Shown piece after piece: positions 4,313 through 53,089 of a stretch of DNA of 64,000 nt; the first letter of the stretch is position 1, and every line of letters starts with the position of its first letter. Under the pieces are notes generated by a model that saw only the letters and a list, made by a program, of their open reading frames with translations, had not been told where the DNA came from and did no database searches. The stretch comes from a virus: the UHGV virus genome UHGV-0036582; one strand, given 5' to 3'. Made by a program: the position numbers and the translations under genes.

Positions 4313-5872
4313 CTAATCTCGTTTCAGAACTCCAAAATCGAATGCTCCATCAATAGGCAATACACCTTCTGCAAAGCCAGGTGTGGTGTCGATGATGTGT
4401 TTTCGCTCATAAGAGTGAGACAACAGGTATTTGTTGCTAATGTCAATGAAATCAGTGATAAAACACACGTTTGCCTGATTTTTTTTGGCTCGTAAGCCAC
4501 GACCGACACGCTGCCTCATTTCAACTTCTGCTTTCCCACCACCAGCAAGAATGACCGCACCAACGCTTGGCACATCAACACCGACATCCAGAATAGTCGA
4601 GCCTATTAAAACATCTATTTCTCCAGACGCTAAACTGTTCAGCTTTGCTTGCCTTGTCGCCTGGTTAGATTCCCCATAGATGAAGTCAACTCTAAGGCCG
4701 GACTCTTTCATCATTTCCATCAGGATTTGCCCGTGGCGTTTAAGACGAACCAGAGTCATACAATTGAGAGAATGTTGCTTATAGAGCAATGCTTCGCGAA
4801 CAATGGCCTCGTTACGTCCCAAATTATACACGATCCCCAACTGATAAGCCTTTTGGTAGGCGGTGCTCATACCAACTCTAAAATTGAGGTGTTTGTTGGC
4901 AAGTTCGGCCTTGATTCTGGCCTCGTCTGGCTTGTAGGCAACTTTATGATAAAGGAAGTACGGCTTTGCCAGAATGCCTCGATCAATCAGGTACTTTTCT
5001 GTGACTTTAATTTCAATTCGCCCGGCCACCGCCATCAGGCGCATGTTGGCTTCCGTCGAATCCTTCATGAACGGCGTGGCTGTAAGCGCCAGACGATAGT
5101 CTGCGTTCACACATAATCTGGCGATGTCATAGAAATTTGAGCCTGAAGACTCATGCGCCTCTTCCAGAATAAGAAGAGAGACACTTGAAAGGAAGCGTTT
5201 CACCAACTCCCGACGTTTGAGGTGGTAGCTTTTCTTATCTGGTGTTGCATCGCGTGGTGGTTCTTCGAGGAAACTTGCAAGAGTTTGAACTGTAGCGACG
5301 TTGATATGTCGTGATACCTGGAACTCACCCGAGCCAATGACTCCAACCTTTTGGTCTTTTAACCACGGTTCGCCATTTTCGGCGCGGTAGTCGATGGATC
5401 TCTGGAAGTTTTCGGCCATTTGAAACATCAGAACAGAGCGGGTTGTTAAAAATAATGTCATTCGACCGATACGTGCAGCTGCTTTGCAGGCAACGTTAGA
5501 TTTCCCGCCACCAGTAGCGATCTGCGCAATCATCATTCCCTCTCGAACCAGTGTTTCCACAGTCTGATCCTGATACGCATAATCAGGATTGTATGGGAAT
5601 GGGTTAACCGCAGGATTTGGTTTACCAAGCGCCGGGGCTTTGTCTTTGCGGATATGAACACATTTGATGCCCGCCTTGTTCAAGTTCGCCGCTACAGGCT
5701 TGGCAAAGCCAGCAGGGAACGAGTTTTTACTCCAGTTGAACATCGTGCTTGTGCCCTTCCAGTCGCCAGTCTCGACTTCGTAGCTCAACATCTGTTGCAC
5801 CATTTGCTTTACCTTGTCATCTGCGCCAGAAATAAGCGCATTAACTGCGTTAGATACAATCCGAACAGTCAT
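4313..5872 (-). CDS. superfamily-2 DEAH-box DNA/RNA helicase
   Basis: Motif I ATGGGKS, motif II LILEEAHE (DEAH-type), motif III TATP, motif VI QRVGRGLR. Confidence 0.75.
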   Translation of the reverse strand: MTVRIVSNAVNALISGADDKVKQMVQQMLSYEVETGDWKGTSTMFNWSKNSFPAGFAKPVAANLNKAGIKCVHIRKDKAPALGKPNPAVNPFPYNPDYAYQDQTVETLVREGMMIAQIATGGGKSNVACKAAARIGRMTLFLTTRSVLMFQMAENFQRSIDYRAENGEPWLKDQKVGVIGSGEFQVSRHINVATVQTLASFLEEPPRDATPDKKSYHLKRRELVKRFLSSVSLLILEEAHESSGSNFYDIARLCVNADYRLALTATPFMKDSTEANMRLMAVAGRIEIKVTEKYLIDRGILAKPYFLYHKVAYKPDEARIKAELANKHLNFRVGMSTAYQKAYQLGIVYNLGRNEAIVREALLYKQHSLNCMTLVRLKRHGQILMEMMKESGLRVDFIYGESNQATRQAKLNSLASGEIDVLIGSTILDVGVDVPSVGAVILAGGGKAEVEMRQRVGRGLRAKKNQANVCFITDFIDISNKYLLSHSYERKHIIDTTPGFAEGVLPIDGAFDFGVLKRD

Positions 5873-5915: not shown

Positions 5916-5938
5916 TAATAAGTAAGTGATTACTTAGT
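5916..5938. promoter_or_regulatory. dyad TAAGTA/TACTTA motif in divergent promoter region
   Basis: ATAAGTAAGTGATTACTTAG between leftward helicase gene and rightward ParB-like gene; member of a recurrent intergenic motif family. Confidence 0.4.
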
Positions 5939-6635
5939 GGATTGTAGCAATAAAATGGATGTAAAAATCACGATTTTGCAGGTTGATGTTGCCAACCTTC
6001 GCCCGAATACCTGGAACACCAATTCGGTTGGTGCGCAGAATTTTGAAAAACTGAAAGGTTCTATCGAAAAATTGGGCTTTTTTAAGCCAATTTTGGCTCG
6101 TGAACTTGAAGATGGATTTTTTGAAATCCTCGGCGGCGAACATCGCTGGCGTGCTGCTATTGAGCAAGGAATTTCAACGGTTCCGGTGCTTTCTGTGGGC
6201 AAAATTAGCGATGTCGTAGCTAAACAGATGTCACTGGTGGACAACGAGCGATACGGTGAAGACGACCAAATCGCATTGCAACGCTTCATTGAAGAAATTC
6301 AGTCAGAACTTGACTATCAACTGTCTGAAATCGCCCCGTATGACGACGAAATCTCGATGGTTTTAGCAAAAGAGGCGGCAATCGACCTTGAAGCACTGGA
6401 GGCGTTGTCTCGTGGTAGTGATGAGCCTGTCGATACCGACAAACGAGAGAAAACCGAACGTGTGGGTGCGGAACATCAGACCATGCGCTTCAAAGTAACT
6501 TTCGATGCGTCAGATCGTGTTGCAGAAACCATAAAAAACATCATCAAAGAGCAGGCTATTAACACCGGTAATGAAATGGAGAACGCTGGTGAGGCTCTGG
6601 TGTGGCTGGTCGACTACTACAAGGAGCGTATGTAA
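5937..6635 (+). CDS. ParB-like nuclease-domain protein 1
   Basis: ParB/Srx N-terminal signature ILGGEHRWRAAIEQG (GxxRxRAA box); GTG start per ORF track. Confidence 0.65.
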   Translation: MDCSNKMDVKITILQVDVANLRPNTWNTNSVGAQNFEKLKGSIEKLGFFKPILARELEDGFFEILGGEHRWRAAIEQGISTVPVLSVGKISDVVAKQMSLVDNERYGEDDQIALQRFIEEIQSELDYQLSEIAPYDDEISMVLAKEAAIDLEALEALSRGSDEPVDTDKREKTERVGAEHQTMRFKVTFDASDRVAETIKNIIKEQAINTGNEMENAGEALVWLVDYYKERM

Positions 6636-7303
6636 TGACCAAAAAGTTTGAAATCGTATATCGCGACCCGGCAGATCTTATTCCCTATGAGATGAATGCC
6701 AAAAAGCATGATGAACAGCAGATCCGAGATCTGGCCGCAGCCATTAAAAAGCGCGGATTTGACCAGCCAATTACGGTCGATAAGAACGACGTAATTATTA
6801 CTGGCCACGGCCGCCGTGAGGCTGCAATTTTTGCTGGACTTGAGCGCGTACCGGTTATTGTTCGCGATGATCTCAGTGATGACGAGGTTCGTGCGAAGCG
6901 CCTTGAAGATAACCGACTTGCCAGCATTGATTACGATGCAATTAAGCTACAGAAAGAGCTTGAGTCGCTTGTTCTGGACGATATCGAGGTTTTCGGCTTT
7001 GAAGAGCGTGAGTTGAATGTTCTCGTTGGCAGTATGACAGAAGAAATGGACACCGACTCGCTAGTTATCGATCTTGGCGAAGAAACTAAACGACAGAAGG
7101 ATGAACACACCGAGATCAGTCGTGAAGTTGCAGCGGAAGAAGTACGTGTTGTCGACGTATTGGGCTTTAAAACGCTCCCTGCTGGCTCTGCCATTGTTGT
7201 TGGTGATTTGCTTGCCCATATGGAAGAAATGACGGGAGAAAGCGGGGTAGACGCATTTGTGGCATATGCGGAGAAGATCTCTTCCGGGGAGATGGCTGCA
7301 TGA
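6602..7303 (+). CDS. ParB-like nuclease-domain protein 2
   Basis: ITGHGRREAAIFAGL ParB-type arginine box; probable true start is the Met of MTKKFEIVY near 6636. Confidence 0.6.
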   Translation: MAGRLLQGAYVMTKKFEIVYRDPADLIPYEMNAKKHDEQQIRDLAAAIKKRGFDQPITVDKNDVIITGHGRREAAIFAGLERVPVIVRDDLSDDEVRAKRLEDNRLASIDYDAIKLQKELESLVLDDIEVFGFEERELNVLVGSMTEEMDTDSLVIDLGEETKRQKDEHTEISREVAAEEVRVVDVLGFKTLPAGSAIVVGDLLAHMEEMTGESGVDAFVAYAEKISSGEMAA

Positions 7304-7965
7304 GCAAATACATCATCAACATATCGTTTCAGACACGCGTAAATAAAACCACGCGCACGTTGGAAATCGCTGAGTCGTTCGGGCTTGGCCTGGACGAAAA
7401 AGAGTGGACGCTTTACGACAATCTGGAGCTGGAAGTGAAGCAGGGCGATGTGGTGTACATCACCGGCCAATCCGGTTCCGGCAAATCCGTTGTGCTGCGC
7501 GAGTTGCAACGACAGATGAAGGATGAAGGGCTGTCTGTAGCCTCCATCGATGATTTTACCTTCGATAATGAGGTTAACGTCATCGATCAGTTGGGCAAAA
7601 CGACCAGTGATGCGCTTGGGTTGTTATCTATGGCTGGTCTGAACGATGCATATCTGTTTGTTCGCAAGCCTTCTGAAATGTCAGACGGCCAGAAATATCG
7701 TCTCAAGATTGCCAAACTGATTGAGTCAGGCGCTAAAGTGTGGGCTGCTGACGAGTTCGGCGCTGTTCTCGACCGTGTAACCGCTCAGGTTGTGGCGTCT
7801 AACCTCCAGCGTGCCGCGCGAAAGGTTGGTGCGACGGTAATGGTGGCGACGACTCACGAAGACCTGAAGAACGCGCTGCGCCCGGATATGCAGATCACCA
7901 AGCACTACAAAGAACGCGTGAAGGTGGAATATCACAATGGTAGTCATGATGAGGTCCATTCATGA
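7300..7965 (+). CDS. stand-alone ABC-type ATPase
   Basis: Walker A GQSGSGKS, signature-like SDGQKYRL, Walker B VWAADEFG, H-loop ATTHED; no transmembrane domain. Confidence 0.65.
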   Translation: MSKYIINISFQTRVNKTTRTLEIAESFGLGLDEKEWTLYDNLELEVKQGDVVYITGQSGSGKSVVLRELQRQMKDEGLSVASIDDFTFDNEVNVIDQLGKTTSDALGLLSMAGLNDAYLFVRKPSEMSDGQKYRLKIAKLIESGAKVWAADEFGAVLDRVTAQVVASNLQRAARKVGATVMVATTHEDLKNALRPDMQITKHYKERVKVEYHNGSHDEVHS

Positions 7966-8852
7966 CGGACATCATCATTAAACGCTACCGCCCTGAAGAG
8001 TTTCCGCGTCATCTGGACTTTCTGGAGCGAATGACTGTTACAAAGGGAACTGTAGAGGACTGGCACGCTCTTAAGTCGCTTCACTACAAAACAGACGGCA
8101 AACCTTTCGCGCCAACTTACTATCGCTGCGAACTTGATGACCGTCTGGTGGGCGTCGTGGTTATGGCTTACCCGAAACTACTGTTGGCACCTCGCCACCG
8201 CATGTTTCCTAAGTTGAAACCAACCACTAATACCACCGTGGCTAACCAGTACTGGGGTCGGTACGTGAATAACAACTTTGCGGTGATCAGTCGCTCAGTT
8301 GTGGATACTCAGTATCGTGGCGTAGGCGTCTCTTATCGAATGATTAACCTGGTTAGCAGGATGCATGACCGGCCAATCATTGAGATCCAGTCCTCGATGA
8401 GCAAATACAATCCCTTCGCCATGAAAGCAGGGTTTAAGTTCATCCGCCCTGAGCGACCGAAGAGCTATGAAAGTGCACTGCGTGTATTCCAGCGCCATTT
8501 TCGTTCCGACCCGGGTGATAACGAGGCGATCGTCAAAGAGTTGTTCGCAATGAGCGAGTCTCGTCGTCGCCGTGCACTGCGTGATCTGGTGGCGGACTAC
8601 CATAAGAACAGTTCCCTGGCAAAAGCTGGGCGGAATCGTGGCACGACGATTCAGGACATTGCCGACAGTCTGGTGGACGAGGCCAGCATTGTGAAGTTGC
8701 TCAAGGACATTCACAACCTGAGCTTTACGTCTCCGTTGTATGGGGTGTATCGAAACCCTGACTTTGGTCGTCGACTGCCTGACACGCTGCCACTGCTGGC
8801 ATTCGACAAACAACCTTTGGATAAACCGTTAGAAATTGCTTTACCGGCATAA
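7962..8852 (+). CDS. GNAT-fold acyltransferase-like protein
   Basis: FAVISRSVVDTQYRGVGVSYRMINL (CoA-binding R-G-x-G) followed by NPFAMKAGFKFI (GNAT motif B); assignment by motif only. Confidence 0.5.
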   Translation: MTDIIIKRYRPEEFPRHLDFLERMTVTKGTVEDWHALKSLHYKTDGKPFAPTYYRCELDDRLVGVVVMAYPKLLLAPRHRMFPKLKPTTNTTVANQYWGRYVNNNFAVISRSVVDTQYRGVGVSYRMINLVSRMHDRPIIEIQSSMSKYNPFAMKAGFKFIRPERPKSYESALRVFQRHFRSDPGDNEAIVKELFAMSESRRRRALRDLVADYHKNSSLAKAGRNRGTTIQDIADSLVDEASIVKLLKDIHNLSFTSPLYGVYRNPDFGRRLPDTLPLLAFDKQPLDKPLEIALPA

Positions 8853-8861
8853 GGATTTGCC

Positions 8862-9128
8862 ATGACGTTAACCGATAAACAAAAGGACATCATCAAAACG
8901 CTCAATCTCGGTTATGAGCGAGGTCATCTACTTGATCTGGACGAATTGCTTGAAGTTTTGCCGTACAAGACAACCAAGCAAAGTATCCAGTTCTCAATTC
9001 GCGCTCTGATAAAAAAGGGGCTTGTGGAGAAAGGGCATACGCGCCAACGCAGTGACAATCGCTATCACCGCCGAACTCTTGGGTTAACCACTTTAGGTCG
9101 AGCCAAAGCGAAGTTACTGGTGATGTAA
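8862..9128 (+). CDS. small hypothetical protein, possible winged-helix DNA binder
   Basis: 88 aa, basic; KQSIQFSIRALIKKGLVEK helix-like segment; no firm motif. Confidence 0.35.
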   Translation: MTLTDKQKDIIKTLNLGYERGHLLDLDELLEVLPYKTTKQSIQFSIRALIKKGLVEKGHTRQRSDNRYHRRTLGLTTLGRAKAKLLVM

Positions 9129-9152
9129 TCGGTCTGGGAGCTTATTTAAAGA

Positions 9153-9207
9153 CCTGCTTCTGTATATATAAATAATAAGTAACTTATTAAATATATACGG
9201 AAGCAGG
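9153..9207. repeat. 55-bp near-perfect palindromic element, copy 1
   Basis: CCTGCTTCTGTATATATAAATAATAAGTAACTTATTAAATATATACGGAAGCAGG, nested inside outer arms GGTCTGGG 9131-9138 / CCCAGACC 9222-9229; second copy at 40508-40562. Confidence 0.7.
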
Positions 9208-9270
9208 CTTAATAAGACATGCCCAGACCTAATTAAACAACCCAGAAAACAAGTTGGTTAGAAAATGCAG

Positions 9271-9286
9271 TAAACAAGTTGTTTTA
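9271..9286. promoter_or_regulatory. palindromic operator-like site TAAACAAGTTGTTTTA upstream of terS
   Basis: AAACAA-G-TTGTTT dyad; imperfect second copy at 9245-9259; further palindrome GAGCGC-ATGGAC-GCGCTC at 9287-9304. Confidence 0.45.
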
Positions 9287-9324
9287 GAGCGCATGGACGC
9301 GCTCTGTGTGTTTTAGAGGGATCT

Positions 9325-9957
9325 ATGACGGTCGAAAAAGACGAGGTAAAAACTCGCCTGACACCAGCGGAGTGGGCCGAAGCTGAAGCCAAATGGACGT
9401 CAGGCGAATATACACTCTCAAAGCTGGAGGAAGAGTACGGCATTCGTCGTGAAACACTCTCCAGACATTTCAAAAAGCGAGGATTAGAGAAAGGCGCGGA
9501 CTCTGTTGGGAAGATGGTTCGTGAGTCTCTTAAATCTGACGCAGAGCTTCGCGCTAAAGCCCGTGCGGAAAAGATAGAAGAACGTCGTACACGTTATGAC
9601 GGCTGGGCGTATGCGTTGGGGCAGATGGTGATGGTCGAAGTCACTACGGCCAAACGTGAGGGTAAGCCTTTAGGGGCGATTGAGGATTCTCTCAAGAGCT
9701 TACAGAGAGCCAGTAATACCCTTGCAAAATGCTTTGAAGTTTCGTCCAAAGCATTGGGCATGGATCATGCGGAAAATGACGAGGAAGAAATTCCGAACCT
9801 GGTATTTGGTGAGCTTACGCCTTCCCAGGTGGCGAAATTACGTCAGGAAGACGACGAGCCTGAAATCATCGATGACGAATTGCTTGAGACGTTGGAAGAA
9901 GAAGCTCTAAGCGAATTTGATGCGACAGATGATGGAAGTGAAGGGGAGGACGAATAA
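9325..9957 (+). CDS. terS: terminase small subunit
   Basis: Directly upstream of terL with stop/start overlap; N-terminal HTH-like segment and acidic C-terminus. Confidence 0.55.
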   Translation: MTVEKDEVKTRLTPAEWAEAEAKWTSGEYTLSKLEEEYGIRRETLSRHFKKRGLEKGADSVGKMVRESLKSDAELRAKARAEKIEERRTRYDGWAYALGQMVMVEVTTAKREGKPLGAIEDSLKSLQRASNTLAKCFEVSSKALGMDHAENDEEEIPNLVFGELTPSQVAKLRQEDDEPEIIDDELLETLEEEALSEFDATDDGSEGEDE

Positions 9958-11213
9958 TGGCAATCCCGTCCTCGCTCAGTCTTGTGCAACTGCATTCTGG
10001 ACAGATGAAAGTCTTCCAGTCTCCGCATCGATTTAAAGTTGTTTGTGCTGGTCGACGCTGGGGAAAATCCCGGTTGTCGATCTCCACTATTATTCGTGCG
10101 GCGGCAAAGGAAAAAAAGCAAAGGGTCTGGTATGTCGCTCCTACTTACCAGATGGCTCGCCAGATTTTGTGGGACGATCTACAGGAAGTTCTGCCTCGTA
10201 AGTGGGTTAGGAAAAAGAACGACACCACGATGACAATCGTGTTGAAGAACGGTTCGGAGATCGCCCTCAAAGGTGCTGATAAGCCTGACACTCTGCGCGG
10301 CGTAGCGTTGCATTTTGTAGTGCTTGATGAATTTCAGGATATGAAGGCTGACACCTGGTACAAGGTGTTACGACCTACTCTTTCATCGACACGCGGCGGT
10401 GCACTGATCATTGGTACGCCAAAAGGTTTCTCGGAATTTCACAAACTGTGGACTATAGGCCAGAACGTAGAGCTGCAAAGAAAGGGACAGTGGAAGAGCT
10501 GGCAGTTTGTAACTGCCGATTCTCCGTTTGTGCCTACGGCGGAAATTGAAGCTGCTAAGAACGATATGGACCCGAAATCGTTCGCTCAGGAGTACCTGGC
10601 GAGCTTTGAGAACATGTCCGGGCGCGTTTACTACCCGTTCGATCGTAACGTGCATGTAAAACCGCTTCAGTTCAACCCTCGGTTGCCTATATGGGTAGGG
10701 CAGGACTTCAACATTGACCCGATGTCTTCAGTAATTTTGCAACCTCAGCCAAATGGTGAGCTATGGGCAATTGATGAATTGGTGCTCTTTTCCTCTAACA
10801 CGGCAGAGGTTTGTGATGAGCTTGAGAGACGCTTCTGGCGCTGGAAATCACAGATAACGGTATTTCCAGATCCGGCAGGTGCTTATCGCCAACATGCTCG
10901 CGGGGAGTCTGACGTCGACATATTCAAAGAGAAGGGATTCTTACGTGTCGATTATTCGAAAAAGCACCCGCCAATTGCGGATCGTGTTAATGCTGTTAAC
11001 CGAATGCTGATGACCGCATCTGGAGATATCCGGTTGTATATCGATCCGAAGTGCAAGCATTTGATTGATTCACTGGAAAAAGTCATCTACAAGCCTGGAA
11101 CACGAGATATGGATAAGACAGGTGGCATTGAGCATAGTGCAGACGCATTGGGCTATCCAGTACATCGTAGGTATCCAGTCAAAAACCGTGTTATTCTTGG
11201 TGGTTCTCGATAG
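9957..11213 (+). CDS. terL: terminase large subunit
   Basis: Walker A VVCAGRRWGKS, Walker B VVLDEFQD, C-terminal nuclease-like region; followed by portal gene. Confidence 0.85.
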   Translation: MAIPSSLSLVQLHSGQMKVFQSPHRFKVVCAGRRWGKSRLSISTIIRAAAKEKKQRVWYVAPTYQMARQILWDDLQEVLPRKWVRKKNDTTMTIVLKNGSEIALKGADKPDTLRGVALHFVVLDEFQDMKADTWYKVLRPTLSSTRGGALIIGTPKGFSEFHKLWTIGQNVELQRKGQWKSWQFVTADSPFVPTAEIEAAKNDMDPKSFAQEYLASFENMSGRVYYPFDRNVHVKPLQFNPRLPIWVGQDFNIDPMSSVILQPQPNGELWAIDELVLFSSNTAEVCDELERRFWRWKSQITVFPDPAGAYRQHARGESDVDIFKEKGFLRVDYSKKHPPIADRVNAVNRMLMTASGDIRLYIDPKCKHLIDSLEKVIYKPGTRDMDKTGGIEHSADALGYPVHRRYPVKNRVILGGSR

Positions 11214-11239: not shown

Positions 11240-12814
11240 ATGGAATTGAACGACAAACAAATTAAGGATCTGGTGGCGCGACGCCACCCGGAATACGAAA
11301 AGAAAAAAGAACATTGGGACTTCCTCGCCAGCACTTACGCTGGCGGGCGTGGTTGGTTTACAGACAATATCTTTCGTTACTTTAAAGAGGGAGATCAGGA
11401 GTTTAAGGAGCGAGTTGAGCGTGCTTATCGCTTCAACCACACTCGTGAGGTGGTAAACCTCATCAACAAATATCTCTTTAAAGAAGACATTCATAGAAAT
11501 ATCGAAGAGGCACCAGAGCAGATCCGCAATTTCTGGAAACGTGCGACTCGCCAGAATGCCTCTATTGACTCATTTATGGCCGCTATTGATTTGCAGTCGT
11601 CTATTTACGGTCGCATATGGGTTGTTGTCGATAGCACGATGAGTGGTGATGTTGAGTCAGTAGCTGACGAGAAAAAGAAAGATGCTCGCGCCTACGCCTA
11701 CTGGATTTCACCTCAGCAAATGCTGGATGTGACATGGGACGACGACGGGAATATGTTGTGGGCGTTAATTGTGGAAGTCGCTCGTGATGACGCAGATCCT
11801 TTTACTTCTACAGGTCAGGAATACCAACGTTATCGTCTGTGGACACAAAACGAGTGGTATCTGTTCCGTGAGGAAGTGAAGAAGGGCGCTGGTGGAGCAG
11901 GTCGCCGTCAGGCAAAAGTTATTTTAGAGGATAGCGGTGAGCATAATCTCGGCGTAGTTCCTGTGTTTCCTGTTGATTGTATTGGAGAAAGTGAATCACC
12001 GTATTTCAGCCCATCGTTGATCGATGATATCGCTTATCTTGATCGTGCGGTTGCAAACTATCTGTCAAACCTTGATGCCATTATTCAGGATCAGACATTT
12101 AGCCAGTTGGCTATACCGGTACAGTCGCTTTTACCTGGTGATGAAAACCACACTAAAGTGCTTGAAATGGGCACAAAGCGAGTCTTCACCTACGATTCTG
12201 AAGGTGGAAACCAGCCGTTTTATCTGTCACCAGACCCGAAACAAGCTCAGATGATCATCACTACGATTAAGACGGTGATTAACGAAATCTACCATTCAGT
12301 TGGTGTAGCTGGTGAGCGAACGAAGCAGGACAACGCACAGGGAATCGATAATTCATCTGGTGCCGCAAAAATGTATGACTTCCAGCGTGTAAATAGCTTG
12401 CTTGTCACAAAAGCAGAGCGTCTGGAAAGGGCTGAACGCCAAATCATGCTACTGGTTGCGAAATGGATGGGGGTAGATCTGGACGAAGACCACTCTTTAA
12501 TTGCGTATCCAGAAAGTTTCGATATTCGTGGCCTTACTGATGAATTTTCTGTTGCCGAGAAACTGTCATTACTTCAGGCACCGGACTCTGTACGTCGTCA
12601 CCAGATGGAAATGCTTATTGAGAAGATTTTCCCGAACATTACTGAGGCGATGAAAAAGGAATTTGATAAAGATCTCTTGAATTTTCCTCCAAAAAATGAT
12701 CTAAATACCCTTGAAAATAAGTCAGTACTTACTTATGATCGTGGTGCAGCCCAAGAAAGCGGGCAAGATCAACCCCGAGGGAATGGGGACTCATCTACTC
12801 AAGAGAACGAGTGA
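11240..12814 (+). CDS. portal protein
   Basis: 524-aa ORF immediately after terL; size and position typical of portal. Confidence 0.7.
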   Translation: MELNDKQIKDLVARRHPEYEKKKEHWDFLASTYAGGRGWFTDNIFRYFKEGDQEFKERVERAYRFNHTREVVNLINKYLFKEDIHRNIEEAPEQIRNFWKRATRQNASIDSFMAAIDLQSSIYGRIWVVVDSTMSGDVESVADEKKKDARAYAYWISPQQMLDVTWDDDGNMLWALIVEVARDDADPFTSTGQEYQRYRLWTQNEWYLFREEVKKGAGGAGRRQAKVILEDSGEHNLGVVPVFPVDCIGESESPYFSPSLIDDIAYLDRAVANYLSNLDAIIQDQTFSQLAIPVQSLLPGDENHTKVLEMGTKRVFTYDSEGGNQPFYLSPDPKQAQMIITTIKTVINEIYHSVGVAGERTKQDNAQGIDNSSGAAKMYDFQRVNSLLVTKAERLERAERQIMLLVAKWMGVDLDEDHSLIAYPESFDIRGLTDEFSVAEKLSLLQAPDSVRRHQMEMLIEKIFPNITEAMKKEFDKDLLNFPPKNDLNTLENKSVLTYDRGAAQESGQDQPRGNGDSSTQENE

Positions 12815-49980: not shown

Positions 49981-50054
49981 ATAGACAATTACGGCAGACG
50001 TTCTTAACCATAGCTTGCTAACATCCTAGCAACACTTTTTTCAGCGCAAAATTC

Positions 50055-50078
50055 AAAGGGGCTTCGGCCCCTTTTTTG
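50055..50078. terminator. bidirectional intrinsic terminator
   Basis: AAA-GGGGC-TTCG-GCCCC-TTTTTT; ends both the tRNA transcript and the convergent minus-strand gene. Confidence 0.85.
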
Positions 50079-50092
50079 TTGAACAGTGCAAT

Positions 50093-51355
50093 TTACTTTG
50101 CATAGTCGCCCAATTTTAATATTTCGCGCTTATATTCATTAACCATGCTACTGGATTCAGTATAAATTCGATTTAAAAGATTATCGTTATCTTTATTTTC
50201 ATTTATCTTAATTAGTGCTAATTTATATTCATAGTCATCAAATGCCACAATTAAATGGTGGCCTGGGATTATATCTTCGTCACTCTTAAAGTATATATCT
50301 TCAAGTATGTAATCTAGTTGATTAGATTTTCTTTTCTCGATGTAATCTTCAGCCATAGCTATTACATCATTCCTGTCATTTAACCTGTTTTTTTCGGAAG
50401 GCACATCTTCGTAATGTTGCACGATTGAACAACCAATAAGGCGTGGGATGTAAACGTCAAAATGAGTAACTCTATCATTCGCGGTTTTAAGTAGTTCCTC
50501 AAAGTAGTTTCTTACATGTAAAGGCAACTTCTCAAAGTAATCATTAATTATAGGAGAACAAGGAGTTTTATAATTCATAAGAACCGACGGTACGAGCTTT
50601 GGGTGTCGAAACATCCAGTCCCTTTTAACGTCCGATGGAACATAATAACTTTTAATGATATTATCAAAATAATTTATCATTCGAGATTTGAATATTTTGT
50701 TGAATCTAAGGTTTATGAATGTATCCAGATAAGGCATATTTGAATAAGCATCATCAAAAAATATTTCATCATTGAAAAAATCATATTTATTCAATAAACA
50801 ACACAGTTTTTCCGAATTAATATGTTCACAATAATCGATTTTTAATCCAAAGATAGCAATGATCAACTTCATCTGAGGTGGGATTTTAAAAATTAATTGT
50901 GACACATACGCTCTTTTTTCCTTGAGACATTCCCCATCAATATAAAATGAACCATCCACATACTCAAATATATTAATAATATGCTTCACATACTGTATTA
51001 CCTCATGCTGTCTTACCAATGGATAATATAGTCTATGTAACTCATCGCTGTTTAAATTAATTTTGTGTTTATCGATAATTTGTTTTGCAAGAAGACATAA
51101 CTCATCATGTTGATTTAATAAGGAATCAAACCATTGTTTAAATGCACTCTTTCGCATTTCGAACAATGATTCAGTTGTTAATTGAAGGGCTGAAAAAGCT
51201 GCTTTTGCACTTTTTCTCGCTTCGTAGGCATTCCATGCTGTTGCTATAAAAGCAAATGCTGTAGCCAATGTTCCAACAGTTTGACCATTTAAAACAACCC
51301 AATCCCAAAAAATGACGGTGAGCAGTAGTATAATAATGAAAATTAAAAAAGGCAT
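50093..51355 (-). CDS. AT-rich moron: membrane-anchored protein of unknown function (candidate exclusion/abortive-infection factor)
   Basis: 420 aa; N-terminal hydrophobic segments (FLIFIIILLLTVIFWDWVV, VGTLATAFAFIATAW); hand-counted GC about 20-28 percent in sampled lines versus about 50 percent in structural genes; opposite strand to flanking genes. Confidence 0.6.
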   Translation of the reverse strand: MPFLIFIIILLLTVIFWDWVVLNGQTVGTLATAFAFIATAWNAYEARKSAKAAFSALQLTTESLFEMRKSAFKQWFDSLLNQHDELCLLAKQIIDKHKINLNSDELHRLYYPLVRQHEVIQYVKHIINIFEYVDGSFYIDGECLKEKRAYVSQLIFKIPPQMKLIIAIFGLKIDYCEHINSEKLCCLLNKYDFFNDEIFFDDAYSNMPYLDTFINLRFNKIFKSRMINYFDNIIKSYYVPSDVKRDWMFRHPKLVPSVLMNYKTPCSPIINDYFEKLPLHVRNYFEELLKTANDRVTHFDVYIPRLIGCSIVQHYEDVPSEKNRLNDRNDVIAMAEDYIEKRKSNQLDYILEDIYFKSDEDIIPGHHLIVAFDDYEYKLALIKINENKDNDNLLNRIYTESSSMVNEYKREILKLGDYAK

Positions 51356-51529
51356 GTATGTATTTCACTCTACTAACTATAAAATATTAGGCTAATGTTA
51401 ACCAAACAATGCCTTAATTAATAGATTGATCGAGGCTTTAATAGCTTTATAATGCAGACTGTAAAGATAAGTATGCACATACCTATCTTCTTTGTAAGTA
51501 AAGTTGCATATCAATTCTATGAGGTAACA

Positions 51530-51775
51530 ATGACGATCACTATCTACGGACGAGATAACTGCTCATACTGCAAACGTGCGGTCGAGCTGGCGAAGCAACT
51601 AAAGGGACATGGCTACGGTGATTATGAGTACATCGACATCACCACTGCCGGTATCGACAAGGAAAAACTAAGTGAAATTGTTGGTAAACCGGTAGAGACT
51701 ATCCCCCAAGTGCTGATCGATGGCCAACCGATTGGCGGATACACAGAACTGGCTGCATACGTCAGCACCCTCTGA
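51530..51775 (+). CDS. glutaredoxin (NrdC-like)
   Basis: ITIYGRDNCSYCKRA CxxC active site; C-terminal PQVLIDGQPIGGY; ATG 51530 after GAGGTAA RBS. Confidence 0.75.
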   Translation: MTITIYGRDNCSYCKRAVELAKQLKGHGYGDYEYIDITTAGIDKEKLSEIVGKPVETIPQVLIDGQPIGGYTELAAYVSTL

Positions 51776-51780
51776 TTTTA

Positions 51781-51805
51781 ACGGCTCACAGGAGCCGTTT
51801 TTATT
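51781..51805 (+). terminator. intrinsic terminator after glutaredoxin gene
   Basis: ACGGCTC-ACAG-GAGCCGT followed by TTTTATT. Confidence 0.8.
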
Positions 51806-51854
51806 CCCACCAAACTCACTCCCGTTTCCCTTAAAATTCAAAAAACAACGTCAA

Positions 51855-51887
51855 AATGATTCCATACCTACTATGTATGGAATCATT
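51855..51887. promoter_or_regulatory. 12-bp perfect inverted repeat upstream of recombinase gene
   Basis: AATGATTCCATA-cctactatg-TATGGAATCATT; left arm is the third copy of the AAATGATTCCATAC repeat. Confidence 0.5.
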
Positions 51888-51985
51888 GCTGAAAATGAGT
51901 TACTTTTACTCTTGATCCTATAAGAATCTATGCCTAATATACTGTTTACTTATACAGTGCATCGGCGTAACTCGGTGATTGTCAT

Positions 51986-53089
51986 ATGAAAAATAGCTTT
52001 GACAGAGCACGCGCTGCGGAGAACACCTCAAAAGAGGCGATAGAGTATCTCGAAAGAGCATCTCAAATGCAGGCCGTTATGATCTCCCAGGTCAGCAATG
52101 ACATGAGATTCTCGGACGCATTCATGTTATTCACTCGCTTATCTCTGCTGATAACCAGACGTCGGCCAGAGATCGCTGTTCATTGTATTTTGATACATGT
52201 TTTGCCGCACCTTGCCGATGTAAAAGTAAGTGACATTAATAGGTTCATGGTGAACCAACTGGTCAACCCACTAATACTGGATGGCAAAATTGTTATGGGC
52301 CGCCGCGTTTTCTCTCTGATGAAGCAGTTCCTTAGCTGGTGCGCCTTCCAGGGGATGATAGACGTGTCACCGTTAAACGATATGTCACTTAACAATGTTG
52401 CCGGTGGCGCAAAGCCCACACCTCGCGAGCGGAAGCTGACCGACGCAGAGGTATGGGTGTTCTGGAATATATGGGACTACTTCAATGTGTGCGCTGGTAC
52501 AAAATGGGCGGCCAGGCTATGTCTTGTATCCGCAAGACGACCTGACGAAGTACTGCGGGCTAAAAAAAGTGAGTTCAACCTCCAGCGTGGGGTTTGGAAT
52601 CAAGGCAAGAGAAACAAATCAGCCCGTGAGCATTCTCTGCCTTTAAGCACATTAATGCGCACATGCATTGAAGAGTTATTCGAATATGGTAAAGGCAGCC
52701 AGTGGCTTGTGCCTTCGAATAAAAAAATCGGGAATGATCTTCCGATGTCTAAAGTGGCAATAGCCCAGGCATTACGCCGTATCCTGGAACGACCAGAACT
52801 GATGGAGCTTGAGCCATTTACACCCCGAGATTTGCGTCGTACTGCGCGTAGTTACTTCCCAGCATTAGGCATAAGCCAGGAGGTATCACGCAAAATCATG
52901 AACCACAGTCTTGAGGGGATAGATCGGGTCTACGACCGGCACGATTATATGGACGAGATGCGAGACGCCTTAGAAAGTTTCTCGACGTACATCGCATCAA
53001 TCGTAGAGCAACCGGATTTAGACGAAATTGACCACAAATTCAAGGGAGATCGTCTATCAACAGAGCTTATTCGTGTAAATTTTTCATAG
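51986..53089 (+). CDS. tyrosine recombinase / phage integrase family
   Basis: C-terminal catalytic block PRDLRRTARS ... MNHS ... VYDRHDY (Arg/His/Tyr positions of the tyrosine recombinase fold); 367 aa. Confidence 0.7.
   Translation: MKNSFDRARAAENTSKEAIEYLERASQMQAVMISQVSNDMRFSDAFMLFTRLSLLITRRRPEIAVHCILIHVLPHLADVKVSDINRFMVNQLVNPLILDGKIVMGRRVFSLMKQFLSWCAFQGMIDVSPLNDMSLNNVAGGAKPTPRERKLTDAEVWVFWNIWDYFNVCAGTKWAARLCLVSARRPDEVLRAKKSEFNLQRGVWNQGKRNKSAREHSLPLSTLMRTCIEELFEYGKGSQWLVPSNKKIGNDLPMSKVAIAQALRRILERPELMELEPFTPRDLRRTARSYFPALGISQEVSRKIMNHSLEGIDRVYDRHDYMDEMRDALESFSTYIASIVEQPDLDEIDHKFKGDRLSTELIRVNFS

Follow-up and report, generated by a model that had tools for sequence, protein, structure and literature searches.

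What do four overlapping genes do that lie directly ahead of the packaging genes of an SSU5-type phage-plasmid, and do they belong together at all? The window, i.e. the whole stretch of DNA that was analysed, comprises 64,000 nucleotides of the virus genome UHGV-0036582. In a sequence-only reading, the four products had been described as two ParB-like proteins, a soluble ABC-type ATPase and a GNAT-like protein, and three roles had been offered for them: DNA modification or anti-restriction, a packaging accessory, or anti-defence. The following features are relevant for the question.

4313..5872, minus strand: UvsW-like SF2 helicase (Pfam ResIII, DEAD, Helicase_C), divergently transcribed
5937..6635, plus strand: g1, ParB/Srx-fold protein, start at GTG 5937 (232 aa) or ATG 5955 (226 aa)
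6635..7303, plus strand: g2, second ParB/Srx-fold protein and paralogue of g1, 222 aa
7300..7965, plus strand: g3, soluble ABC-type ATPase, 221 aa, with the full set of catalytic motifs
7962..8852, plus strand: g4, GNAT-fold acyltransferase domain plus helical C-terminal domain, 296 aa
8862..9128, plus strand: g5, 88-aa basic protein (pI 10.2) matching phrog_900 (1.9e-45, function unknown)
9131..9306, no strand: putative intergenic control region at the end of the cassette (palindrome, repeats, hairpin)
9131-9229: AT-rich imperfect palindrome
9233-9282: 25-nt direct repeats
9285-9306: terminator-like hairpin
9325-9957, plus strand: terS-like gene (phrog_867)
9957-11213, plus strand: TerL, the packaging gene that the cassette precedes

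All four open reading frames were found on the plus strand where the earlier reading had placed them, and the overlapping stops and starts it had noted are real, with overlaps of 1, 4 and 4 nt along g1 to g4 (TAATG at the g1/g2 junction, ATGA at both g2/g3 and g3/g4). The start of g1 is ambiguous between GTG 5937 and ATG 5955, the latter being preferred by the annotators of Cyrano. The real ATG of g2 lies at 6635, and the 233-aa frame from GTG 6602 is only the mechanical maximum.

The ATPase motifs that had been noticed can all be read in the translation of g3, namely Walker A (G56-S63), the SDGQ signature (S128-D-G-Q131), Walker B (D151-E152) and the H-loop (H186), and the protein matches Pfam ABC_tran (PF00005) with 50.1 bits (5.8e-13; cut-off 25). 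Its ABC domain resembles the nucleotide-binding domains of transporters, the match to SMC_N is weak (17 bits), and the domain contains neither a coiled coil nor another feature of SMC/Rad50/RecF proteins. There is no membrane or permease gene in or beside the cassette, so that the genes do not qualify as an ABC transporter. Instead, g3 aligns with the N-terminal part of a family of fused ABC-GNAT proteins, A2 (hhalign probability 100%, E 3.3e-72, 49% identity, template columns 8-219 of 484), and g4 with the C-terminal half (probability 100%, E 1.5e-40), so that the two jointly span columns 8-467. The cassette and the fused family have in common the motifs GxSGxGKS, LSDGQKYR and DEF of the ATPase and RGxGxG and YNPF..KAG of the GNAT, and Walker A, signature and Walker B are invariant throughout the fused family. 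Judged by these alignments, g3 and g4 are the split version of one two-domain enzyme of the COG2401 type. Both halves of the annotated but uncharacterised COG2401/'MK0520'-type ABC ATPase-acetyltransferase fusion are matched by the cassette, as aligned to family A2; however, this fusion is a single protein, whereas in the cassette it is divided between g3 and g4, which overlap by 4 nt, and two ParB-like genes lie ahead of them. A literature search on COG2401 and MK0520 returned no relevant paper.

The second half of this enzyme, g4, consists of the GNAT-fold domain (residues ~1-165) and the helical C-terminal domain (~170-296) and is strongly basic (pI 9.8, charge +15). It has the GNAT fold including the motif-A pyrophosphate-binding loop (R/Q-x-x-G-x-G/A). 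No GNAT family of Pfam is matched by g4 itself; the homologous halves of Enterococcus 9184 ORF024 (27.5 bits) and of the representative P0237 (25.6 bits) reach Acetyltransf_1 (cut-off 20.7). Nor does g4 match the Pfam family of Mom (PF25680): the likeness to Mom exists at the level of the fold, which is common to other GNATs, and g4 is equally close to Mom and to dozens of ordinary GNATs. Homologues of g4 carry a COG2401-type name at JGI and in the Cyrano record, and g4 contains no P-loop despite being named an 'ATP-binding subunit'.

ABC+GNAT fusions make up 57 of the 148 deep-search representatives listed, and the fused form occurs in viruses of bacteria and archaea. Four metagenomic cluster representatives (P0197, P0221, P0223 and P0227) additionally possess an N-terminal ParB-like domain, which is recognised by a subfamily HMM (1e-9 to 2e-15), although it stays below the threshold in Pfam (best E 0.01). 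Their DGxNPN, GEQR and RQVLNK boxes align to g1/g2, and from these similarities they are probably ParB-ABC-GNAT triple fusions. PolB, ABC and GNAT are joined in a single frame in L131 and in P0204 and P0178. The fusion partners seen with the ATPase are GNAT, ParB, PolB, an intein and a TFIIB repeat, and never, among the proteins examined, a transmembrane domain. A profile search yielded 893 relatives, at least 598 virome loci contain a relative of one subtype, and the hosts of the viruses concerned include Proteobacteria, Firmicutes, Actinobacteria, Spirochaetes, Planctomycetota, Bacteroidota and Archaea.

The ParB-like arginine boxes reported for g1 (GGEHRWRAA, its box II) and g2 (GHGR) are real, and both proteins exceed the cut-off of Pfam ParB_N (PF02195; 26.3 bits) with 49.9 bits (3.3e-13) and 35.2 bits, respectively. 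They share the N-terminal fold of ParB with conserved residues of boxes I, II and III, including the GxxR arginine finger, and both are acidic (g1: pI 4.6, charge -18; g2: pI 4.5, charge -22); the C-terminal half of g2 is helical. The g1 protein matches phrog_723 (2e-79) and is 31-40% identical to its counterparts in nickie, RHEph10, BUCTxx99, L003 and L004; within the g2 family the GHGR, NAKxH and DNR boxes are invariant. Outside its own family, the ParB domain of g2 is closest to ParB-DNA-methyltransferase fusions (phrog_498, 1.2e-31; PADLOC MTase_II PDLC03229, 2.8e-17). No DNA-binding domain was recognisable in g1, the model shows no helix-turn-helix (HTH), and TIGR00180 remained below its cut-off (43 bits vs 58.45). 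As the central HTH, a TIGR00180 match above the cut-off and a partner parA next to the genes are all absent, these are not canonical partition ParBs. Their sequences rather suggest ParB-fold, NTP-binding partner proteins that do not themselves contain a domain for DNA binding. It is likely that g1 and g2 form a heterodimer, since relatives get by with a single ParB.

Downstream, g5 follows g4 after a spacer of 9 nt, and relatives likewise have it between g4 and terS (homologues in L003, L004, L005 and L007). It is probably a fifth gene of the same operon; weak matches to Sta1/Lrs14 winged HTH proteins indicate that it is possibly a winged helix.

The gene set and its position ahead of the terminase recur in related and unrelated phages, a neighbourhood check that had been proposed along with the first description of the cassette. 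The order ParB, ABC-GNAT, terS/TerL is present in the Gordonia phages BiggityBass and Jace, Leptospira LE3, Pasteurella Pmp13, Lactococcus P335, Streptococcus phiNIH1.1 and prophages of Planctomycetota. In 80 virome loci, all related to a single query protein and not independent of each other, a ParB gene overlaps the start of ABC-GNAT in 65 cases, TerL starts a median of 406 nt downstream, and the adjoining terminases represent no fewer than four Pfam types. Synteny of the cassette is strict in lytic and temperate members of its own lineage, and g3 is 54-59% identical across this lineage, the same level as TerL. Had the four been unrelated housekeeping genes, co-occurrence would not be expected, but they do co-occur and even fuse. 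The proposal that they form one functional unit is thus sustained by the two halves of a fused protein, the probable triple fusions and the recurrence in unrelated phages; on the sequence level this goes beyond what overlapping stops and starts alone could give. The combination had not been recognised as a described system, and we likewise found no description of a ParB-ABC-GNAT module in the literature.

We consider g1 to g4, probably together with g5, to be one enzyme module directed at nucleic acid. Its function is something that we infer, and of the three roles offered before, DNA modification and a packaging accessory are the two leading explanations. The best reading, which we hold tentatively, is that the module, driven by ATP and assisted by the ParBs, transfers an acyl group to phage DNA before this is packaged. 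The module would be expressed from its own operon right ahead of terS/TerL; the ABC domain would dimerise with ATP and engage DNA; the ParB-like proteins would activate the enzyme or hold it on double-stranded DNA, comparable to DpdB and the ParB activators of thymine dioxygenases; and the GNAT would then move an acyl group from acyl-CoA to a base in the newly replicated genome.

Pointers to DNA as the substrate are the charge of g4, the members of the family that abut PolA or PolIII-alpha or are fused to PolB, the proximity of g2 to ParB-methyltransferase fusions, and the modification enzymes whose genes relatives have inserted into the module or next to it. The latter include SAM methyltransferases, a Mom-like GNAT, a formyltransferase, a PAPS-reductase-like protein, an amidoligase with GGACT, 2OG oxygenases, a glycosyltransferase and ASCH/DUF3850 proteins. 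Against acyl transfer speak that g4 is not specially Mom-like, that the polymerase-linked and archaeal-virus forms have no detectable ParB, that the triple fusions have a ParB domain below the Pfam threshold, and that core-gene-level conservation and the tight position before terS/TerL suit packaging equally. SSU5 encodes a canonical thymidylate synthase, DHFR, Dam and a DUF4942 methyltransferase; no precursor pathway for an acyl modification was found in it, and we found no literature report of a modified base in DNA of the SSU5 group or of Nickievirus. Acyl transfer may moreover not be a constant activity of the module, because the GNAT has shrunk to 126 aa in P335 and is replaced by an ASCH protein in phiNIH1.1, with ParB and ABC kept in both.

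A far-reaching version of the acyl-transfer reading, which we regard as rather unlikely, would see here a widespread new phage machine, in which a ParB switch controls an ABC-ATPase-driven GNAT that acylates a genome base before packaging, for instance to an N4-acylcytosine-type base. PanD or CoA-transferase neighbours might then supply the donor in some phages, and ASCH/DUF3850 (PUA-like) proteins might serve as readers or erasers.

Known systems provide partial precedents. Thymine dioxygenases (5mYOX/ParB; O'Toole et al., PNAS 2026) need a phage ParB-like activator for activity on double-stranded DNA, and their neighbourhoods contain ParB in 27% and a terminase in 19% of cases (PMC13229309). 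This small ParB shares the architecture of g1/g2, in which a nucleotide-binding and a C-terminal domain are combined and no domain for DNA binding is obvious, and its gene lies next to that of the enzyme and often near the terminase. However, that system combines an Fe/2OG dioxygenase with one ParB, whereas the cassette has an ABC ATPase, a GNAT and two ParB paralogues. A ParB without a DNA-binding domain that is encoded with or fused to the enzyme is a feature of ParB-assisted modification systems, and this is the gene layout of the cassette. ParB-DNA-methyltransferase fusions, with the ParB domain nearest to g2, tend toward the late or pre-terminase region; the cassette differs from them by having no methyltransferase and a separate ATPase and acyltransferase as effector. 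They are listed as typical phage ParB fusions, and ParB-acetyltransferase fusions have been reported as well (PMC12704722). The same source describes DndB as a ParB-like protein, and DpdB is a ParB-like NTPase partner of the DNA-modifying enzyme DpdA in 7-deazaguanine modification (PMC12839542). The pairing of a ParB-like NTPase with a DNA-modifying enzyme is what makes these systems comparable to the proposed module, the comparison being one of the shared ParB fold; TGT-like and Dnd enzymes are absent from the cassette. Mom of phage Mu is a GNAT-fold DNA methylcarbamoyl transferase that, unlike the cassette, works without an ATPase or ParB. A parallel in design is TmcA/NAT10, an ATP-dependent RNA cytidine N4-acetyltransferase in which a P-loop ATPase is joined to a base-acetylating GNAT. 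However, this ATPase is helicase-like and the substrate is tRNA or rRNA, whereas the cassette ATPase is of the ABC type; as none of the TmcA-type Pfam domains (GNAT_acetyltr_2, tRNA-binding) was matched in the cassette, it does not belong to TmcA/NAT10.

A real if somewhat unlikely possibility is that the module does not modify DNA but assists packaging or DNA maturation. The ParB switch, together with the ABC ATPase, would arrange or mark concatemeric DNA or pass it on to terS/TerL, as ParB loads the ABC-type SMC ATPase, and the GNAT would acetylate a packaging protein (terS, TerL, portal or the ParBs) for timing. The location right before terS/TerL in so many lineages, the short distance to TerL, the linkage across at least four terminase families and the TerL-like conservation of g3 argue for it, as do 51 of 80 Bathyarchaeia-type viral loci with the ABC-GNAT gene directly after TerL and the many viral contigs that end just after this gene. 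However, a separate terS-like gene is already there, the inserted neighbours are small-molecule and base-modifying enzymes instead of morphogenesis genes, and the PolB fusion and the adjacency to PolA, PolIII-alpha, DnaB and primase without a terminase nearby are hard to account for.

These very neighbourhoods would suit a factor of replication, recombination or repair, i.e. a DNA-repair-type ABC ATPase that works with the phage replisome and adjoins the terminase only as an effect of the module boundary, a role that we consider improbable. Besides the PolB-ABC-GNAT frames, the fused gene abuts PolA (L156) or PolIII-alpha (L092, L222), comes after DnaB and DHH in L008 and after primase and DnaB in L219, and is flanked by primase and helicase in Nonlabens P12024S; the UvsW-like helicase is kept as upstream neighbour throughout the lineage of the window. 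However, the ABC domain is transporter-like and lacks SMC/Rad50/RecF features, the conserved acyl-CoA loop of the GNAT has no obvious role at a replisome, and the ParB-linked forms are in a late or packaging position in most sampled loci.

We give equally little credence to a host-takeover or anti-defence effector, in which the substrate acylated by the GNAT would come from the host (a signalling nucleotide, polyamines, a protein of a defence system or, as for TacT-type toxins, aminoacyl-tRNA) and the acidic ParB-like proteins, given their charges, would perhaps be DNA mimics. The genes fall into the PHROG category 'moron, auxiliary metabolic gene and host takeover', and insertions are concentrated between ABC and GNAT, where Rhizobium phages have a DUF2829 gene, presumably of the family of the anti-Thoeris protein Tad2. 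However, matches in PADLOC are limited to the methyltransferase ParB domain and generic P-loops, and the breadth of host phyla including Archaea argues for a universal substrate and not a host-specific target. The earlier suggestion of an accessory anti-defence role is disfavoured by an ATPase conserved like a core gene (54-59%), strict synteny and a family spanning bacterial and archaeal viruses.

A plasmid partition system with an ABC transporter, as the GenBank, RefSeq and PHROG names ('ParB-like partition protein', 'ABC transporter', 'ABC transporter ATP-binding subunit') and the phage-plasmid nature of the element would have it, is practically untenable and was rejected, since ParA is not adjacent, the model shows no HTH, TIGR00180 is under its cut-off, there is no permease, g4 is a GNAT without P-loop, the ATPase partners in the proteins examined are never transmembrane, and the same genes occur in strictly lytic phages such as nickie.

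These labels are consequently wrong in hundreds of phage and plasmid records. The carriers comprise phage-plasmids of the SSU5 type in clinical E. coli, Klebsiella and Salmonella, model dairy phages (P335), S. pyogenes prophages, many actinophages and archaeal viruses, and so conserved a gene set at the packaging genes without an assigned function is a gap in basic phage biology. If the module modifies DNA, it would bring new chemistry and a third enzyme class under the recently recognised regulation of DNA-modifying enzymes by ParB folds, with relevance to restriction evasion, the host range of therapeutic phages and sequencing artefacts. An acyl mark in particular would mean an epigenetic or protective DNA mark in clinically common phage-plasmids of Enterobacteriaceae, in P335 phages and in S. 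pyogenes prophages. If the role lies in packaging instead, the module would be an unrecognised terminase accessory.

Beyond g5, the terS-like gene and TerL overlap as well (ATAATG), and both SSU5 and Cyrano are linearised in GenBank within the putative control region ahead of them.

Between a divergent helicase gene and the packaging genes lie four consecutive genes at 5937-8852 on the plus strand, which are called g1 and g2 (ParB-like), g3 (ABC-type ATPase) and g4 (GNAT) here. All four open reading frames described in the sequence-only reading are confirmed, and so are the overlapping stops and starts, which read TAATG at g1/g2, placing the start of g2 at the ATG at 6635, and ATGA at g2/g3 and g3/g4. 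The assignments were borne out by Pfam scores above the gathering score, namely 49.9 bits (g1) and 35.2 bits (g2) with ParB_N and 50.1 bits (g3) with ABC_tran, while the RGVGV string pointed out in g4 corresponds to the GNAT motif-A loop, with R119 and G122 invariant across the family. The cassette shares 99.3% identity with Escherichia phage Cyrano (the phage-plasmid pLF82 of E. coli LF82), 85.6% with Salmonella phage SSU5 and approximately 82% with Klebsiella SSU5-type elements. The features of the region are as follows.

4313-5872, minus strand: UvsW-like helicase, divergent, on the other flank of the cassette
5937-8852, plus strand: g1 to g4
8862-9128: 88-aa basic gene, beginning 9 nt past g4
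9131-9229: AT-rich imperfect palindrome of about 99 nt, inner 16-nt arms 88% complementary
9233-9282: two 25-nt direct repeats
9285-9306: terminator-like hairpin just ahead of terS
9325-9957: terS-like packaging gene
9957-11213: TerL
11240-12814: portal

The position of the 88-aa gene is kept in relatives, and it is a probable fifth member of the cassette. The 196 nt between this gene and terS (9129-9324) may serve as a pac/cos site or in late control. A scan for promoter and terminator consensus sequences stayed at chance level, save for one hairpin ahead of terS. The GenBank records of SSU5 and Cyrano are linearised within the palindrome, at about position 9190 of the window.

Among SSU5-type phage-plasmids and their relatives, the gene order is helicase (minus strand), ParB, ParB, ABC, zero to three small inserts, GNAT, small basic gene, terS, TerL and portal. 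This order is kept at 41-45% identity of g4 in a chromosomal prophage, an Ectothiorhodospira element and the phages nickie (Pseudomonas), RHEph10 (Rhizobium) and BUCTxx99 (Stenotrophomonas). Across these members g3 shows 54-59% identity, next to 56-62% for TerL, 47-56% for the portal and 50-60% for the major capsid protein; judged by these values, g3 is conserved at the level of a core gene, in lytic and temperate members alike. Relatives have an insertion hot spot at the ABC/GNAT junction, whereas g3 and g4 overlap in the window without an insert. The inserts comprise an 84-aa gene in SSU5 (L002 9994-10248; L-numbers denote the loci examined), a 111-aa gene in nickie (L005 5646-5981), a DUF2829 and a 66-aa gene in RHEph10 (L006 6393-6895), a Phage_gp49_66, a 96-aa and a RyR-domain gene in the Ectothiorhodospira element (L004 8961-9999) and a 96-aa gene in L003 (9705-9995).

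The relationship between g3 and g4 becomes clear from their homologs. When 1.84 billion representatives were searched with a g4-family profile, 893 relatives emerged, many of which are 450-500 aa long and carry, according to Pfam, an ABC domain N-terminal to the g4-like part. In comparison to an alignment of 36 such ABC-GNAT fusions (484 template columns), g3 matches the N-terminal half with an hhalign probability of 100% (E 3.3e-72, 49% identity) and the g4 family the C-terminal half with a probability of 100% (E 1.5e-40), so that both jointly span columns 8-467 of the 484. By this alignment, g3 and g4 are one protein divided into two genes. The family is named 'ABC-type ATPase fused to a predicted acetyltransferase domain' in COG, at JGI and in the Cyrano record, and further split forms occur in Planctomycetota, Enterococcus phage 9184 and two metagenomic phages. 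Since the ATPase motifs and GNAT motif A are invariant in split and fused forms alike, the predicted ATPase and acyltransferase activities are probably both genuine. A sequence search of the PDB with the g4 profile gave no meaningful match.

Some members of this family are unusual in annotation or architecture. ORF024 of Enterococcus phage 9184 (L226 5516-6346), which supplies the GNAT part of a split ABC-GNAT (27.5 bits with Pfam Acetyltransf_1), is annotated as 'DNA polymerase', a label probably taken over from PolB-ABC-GNAT fusions. Homologs of g4 are widely labelled 'ABC transporter ATP-binding subunit', yet they have no P-loop. Among the protein representatives from the profile search, P0166 (847 aa) has an ABC domain interrupted by an intein with a LAGLIDADG endonuclease, P0237, P0192 and P0203 (878-908 aa) are extended N-terminally by about 430 aa that match no Pfam family, and the archaeal-looking P0154 (665 aa) has an added C-terminal TFIIB repeat. 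A faint LAGLIDADG match is also present in the primase of locus L219 (1-1499).

The two ParB-like proteins are paralogous, as one HMM trained on the pair matches either protein from end to end. They are very acidic (pI about 4.5, charges of -18 for g1 and -22 for g2), in contrast to the very basic g4 (pI 9.8, charge +15). ParB-DNA-methyltransferase fusions contain the domains most similar to the ParB domain of g2 (phrog_498, 1.2e-31; PADLOC MTase_II, 2.8e-17). Four further representatives (P0197, P0221, P0223 and P0227; 666-699 aa) possess an extra domain ahead of ABC-GNAT, which matches the g1/g2 HMM with E-values of 1e-9 to 2e-15 and whose boxes DGxNPN, GEQR and RQVLNK line up with g1 and g2. 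These proteins are probable ParB-ABC-GNAT triple fusions, graded no higher because the general Pfam ParB_N profile gives marginal support (weak, with E 0.01 in one of the four).

Outside the SSU5 lineage, ParB proteins of the same subfamily (HMM E-values of 1.7e-10 to 5e-31) are encoded directly upstream of ABC-GNAT genes, and a terminase gene is nearby in every such phage except Arthrobacter phage EastWest. In Gordonia phage BiggityBass, ParB and ABC-GNAT are genes 1 and 2, followed by a formyltransferase-like gene 3 and the terminase as gene 4; Gordonia phage Jace, Leptospira phage LE3 and Pasteurella phage Pmp13 also have ParB directly upstream of ABC-GNAT, as does EastWest. The order is Alt, ParB, ABC, a 126-aa GNAT remnant, terS and TerL in Lactococcus phage P335 and ParB, ABC, an ASCH protein and TerL in Streptococcus phage phiNIH1.1. 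In Planctomycetota prophages, ABC, GNAT, ParB and TerL are all present in a different order; HMM hits were used for these high-GC contigs, as greedy ORF picking is unreliable there. The 216- and 228-aa genes ahead of the ABC gene in L219, considered as a possible ParB pair, were rejected by the subfamily HMM.

Since a scan of IMG/VR with the g4 alignment returned near-identical SSU5-type loci only and was uninformative on independent contexts, it was repeated with fused-family alignments, and seven short fusions detected at least 598 virome loci with a relative. Among the best 80 of these at least 598 loci, all of which are relatives of one query and not independent samples, a ParB gene lies directly upstream in 53 of the 70 with enough upstream sequence, a single ParB cluster is found in 65 of the 80 with a median overlap of 18 nt with the ABC-GNAT start, and, of the 48 loci that extend 4 kb downstream, 29 have a TerL (nine-protein panel), at a median distance of 406 nt. 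A representative of this ParB cluster scores 29.1 bits with Pfam ParB_N, above the cut-off. At least four Pfam types are represented among the adjoining terminases, so the linkage is not explained simply by co-inheritance with a single terminase family.

The ABC-GNAT gene is also associated with replication genes. PolB, ABC and GNAT are joined in one ORF in L131, P0204 and P0178, and elsewhere the gene abuts PolA (L156) or PolIII-alpha (L092, L222), follows DnaB and DHH (L008) or primase and DnaB (L219), is flanked by primase and helicase in Nonlabens phage P12024S or comes after the polymerase in Enterococcus phage 9184. In Bathyarchaeia-type viral contigs (L090-L169), where no ParB was detected, the fused gene starts 5 nt after TerL in 51 of 80 loci. 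It is often the last gene on these contigs, and about 17 of the 80 break off no more than 2 nt from its stop codon. The genes downstream are not conserved, and the end of a genome or the edge of a provirus may lie at this position.

Conservation of the neighbourhood across related and unrelated phages upheld the view of the cassette as one unit, with ParB, ABC and GNAT recurring together and also fused. On the comparisons of sequence and gene order, we regard it as established that they form one module, widespread in bacterial and archaeal viruses. The module is placed at the interface of replication and packaging.

In relatives, most genes inserted into the module or next to it encode modifying enzymes. 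Methyltransferases and a Mom-family GNAT lie between ABC and GNAT (L215, L219); others are formyltransferase-like, PAPS-reductase-like, amidoligase with GGACT, aspartate decarboxylase, CoA-transferase, 2OG oxygenases, glycosyltransferase and ASCH or DUF3850 proteins. The latter, PUA-like proteins recur beside the module as individual sightings, directly after a 908-aa fusion (L214 9859-10119), 4 kb from the module (L219 12097-12522), in place of the GNAT in phiNIH1.1 (L224 6113-6490) and as one neighbour cluster in the virome set (L234-L313).

Our favoured, though tentative, reading is that the module would transfer an acyl group onto phage DNA ahead of packaging, with ParB assisting and ATP driving the reaction. 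It is favoured by the strongly basic g4, the linkage and fusion of the family to polymerases and terminases, the modification enzymes among the inserted neighbours, the similarity of g2 to ParB-methyltransferase fusions, and several precedents. Of these, the GNAT fold of Mu Mom is able to modify DNA. Thymine dioxygenases are activated on dsDNA by phage ParB-like proteins that lack a DNA-binding domain, and the genes met most often near these dioxygenases include ParB (27%) and terminase (19%) (PMC13229309). ParB-fold fusions to methyltransferases and to acetyltransferases are on record (PMC12704722), and DpdB has been described as a ParB-like ATPase (PMC12839542). However, these phages are not known to contain a modified base, g4 resembles Mom no more than it resembles other GNATs, and ParB and ABC persist where the GNAT is truncated (P335) or replaced by an ASCH protein (phiNIH1.1). 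SSU5 encodes a thymidylate synthase of the standard Pfam family, DHFR, a MazG-like protein, Dam and DUF4942, and a search of its genes for a hypermodification precursor pathway gave no pointer to hydroxymethyl-pyrimidines. The papers on Nickievirus and Cyrano report nothing about DNA modification or about the cassette genes.

The main rival is a packaging accessory, which the conservation and position of the module suit equally well, and which we consider rather unlikely. A role in replication or repair appears improbable to us, to the same extent as one in host takeover or anti-defence. Plasmid partition and ABC transport are highly improbable and were both rejected on tests. As canonical partition ParB proteins, g1 and g2 fail, with a score of 43 bits for the profile TIGR00180 against a cut-off of 58.45 and no neighbouring ParA; the database annotations 'partition protein' and 'ABC transporter' are wrong.

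No functional description of the module came up in literature searches or in the papers on Cyrano, Nickievirus and LE3, which agrees with the initial impression that the combination is not a described system. Searches for COG2401/MK0520 yielded nothing relevant to it, and a query for ParB-like, acetyltransferase and ABC ATPase in phages surfaced only a BREX survey. The module would belong with ParB-partnered nucleic-acid enzymes, as one without an earlier functional description. It matters for its breadth, conservation and position, and it is directly testable.

Apart from the cassette, the GC content falls to 0.344 at 50001-52000, compared to 0.44-0.51 elsewhere in the window, around a 420-aa minus-strand ORF (50093-51355) that may be a recently acquired moron.
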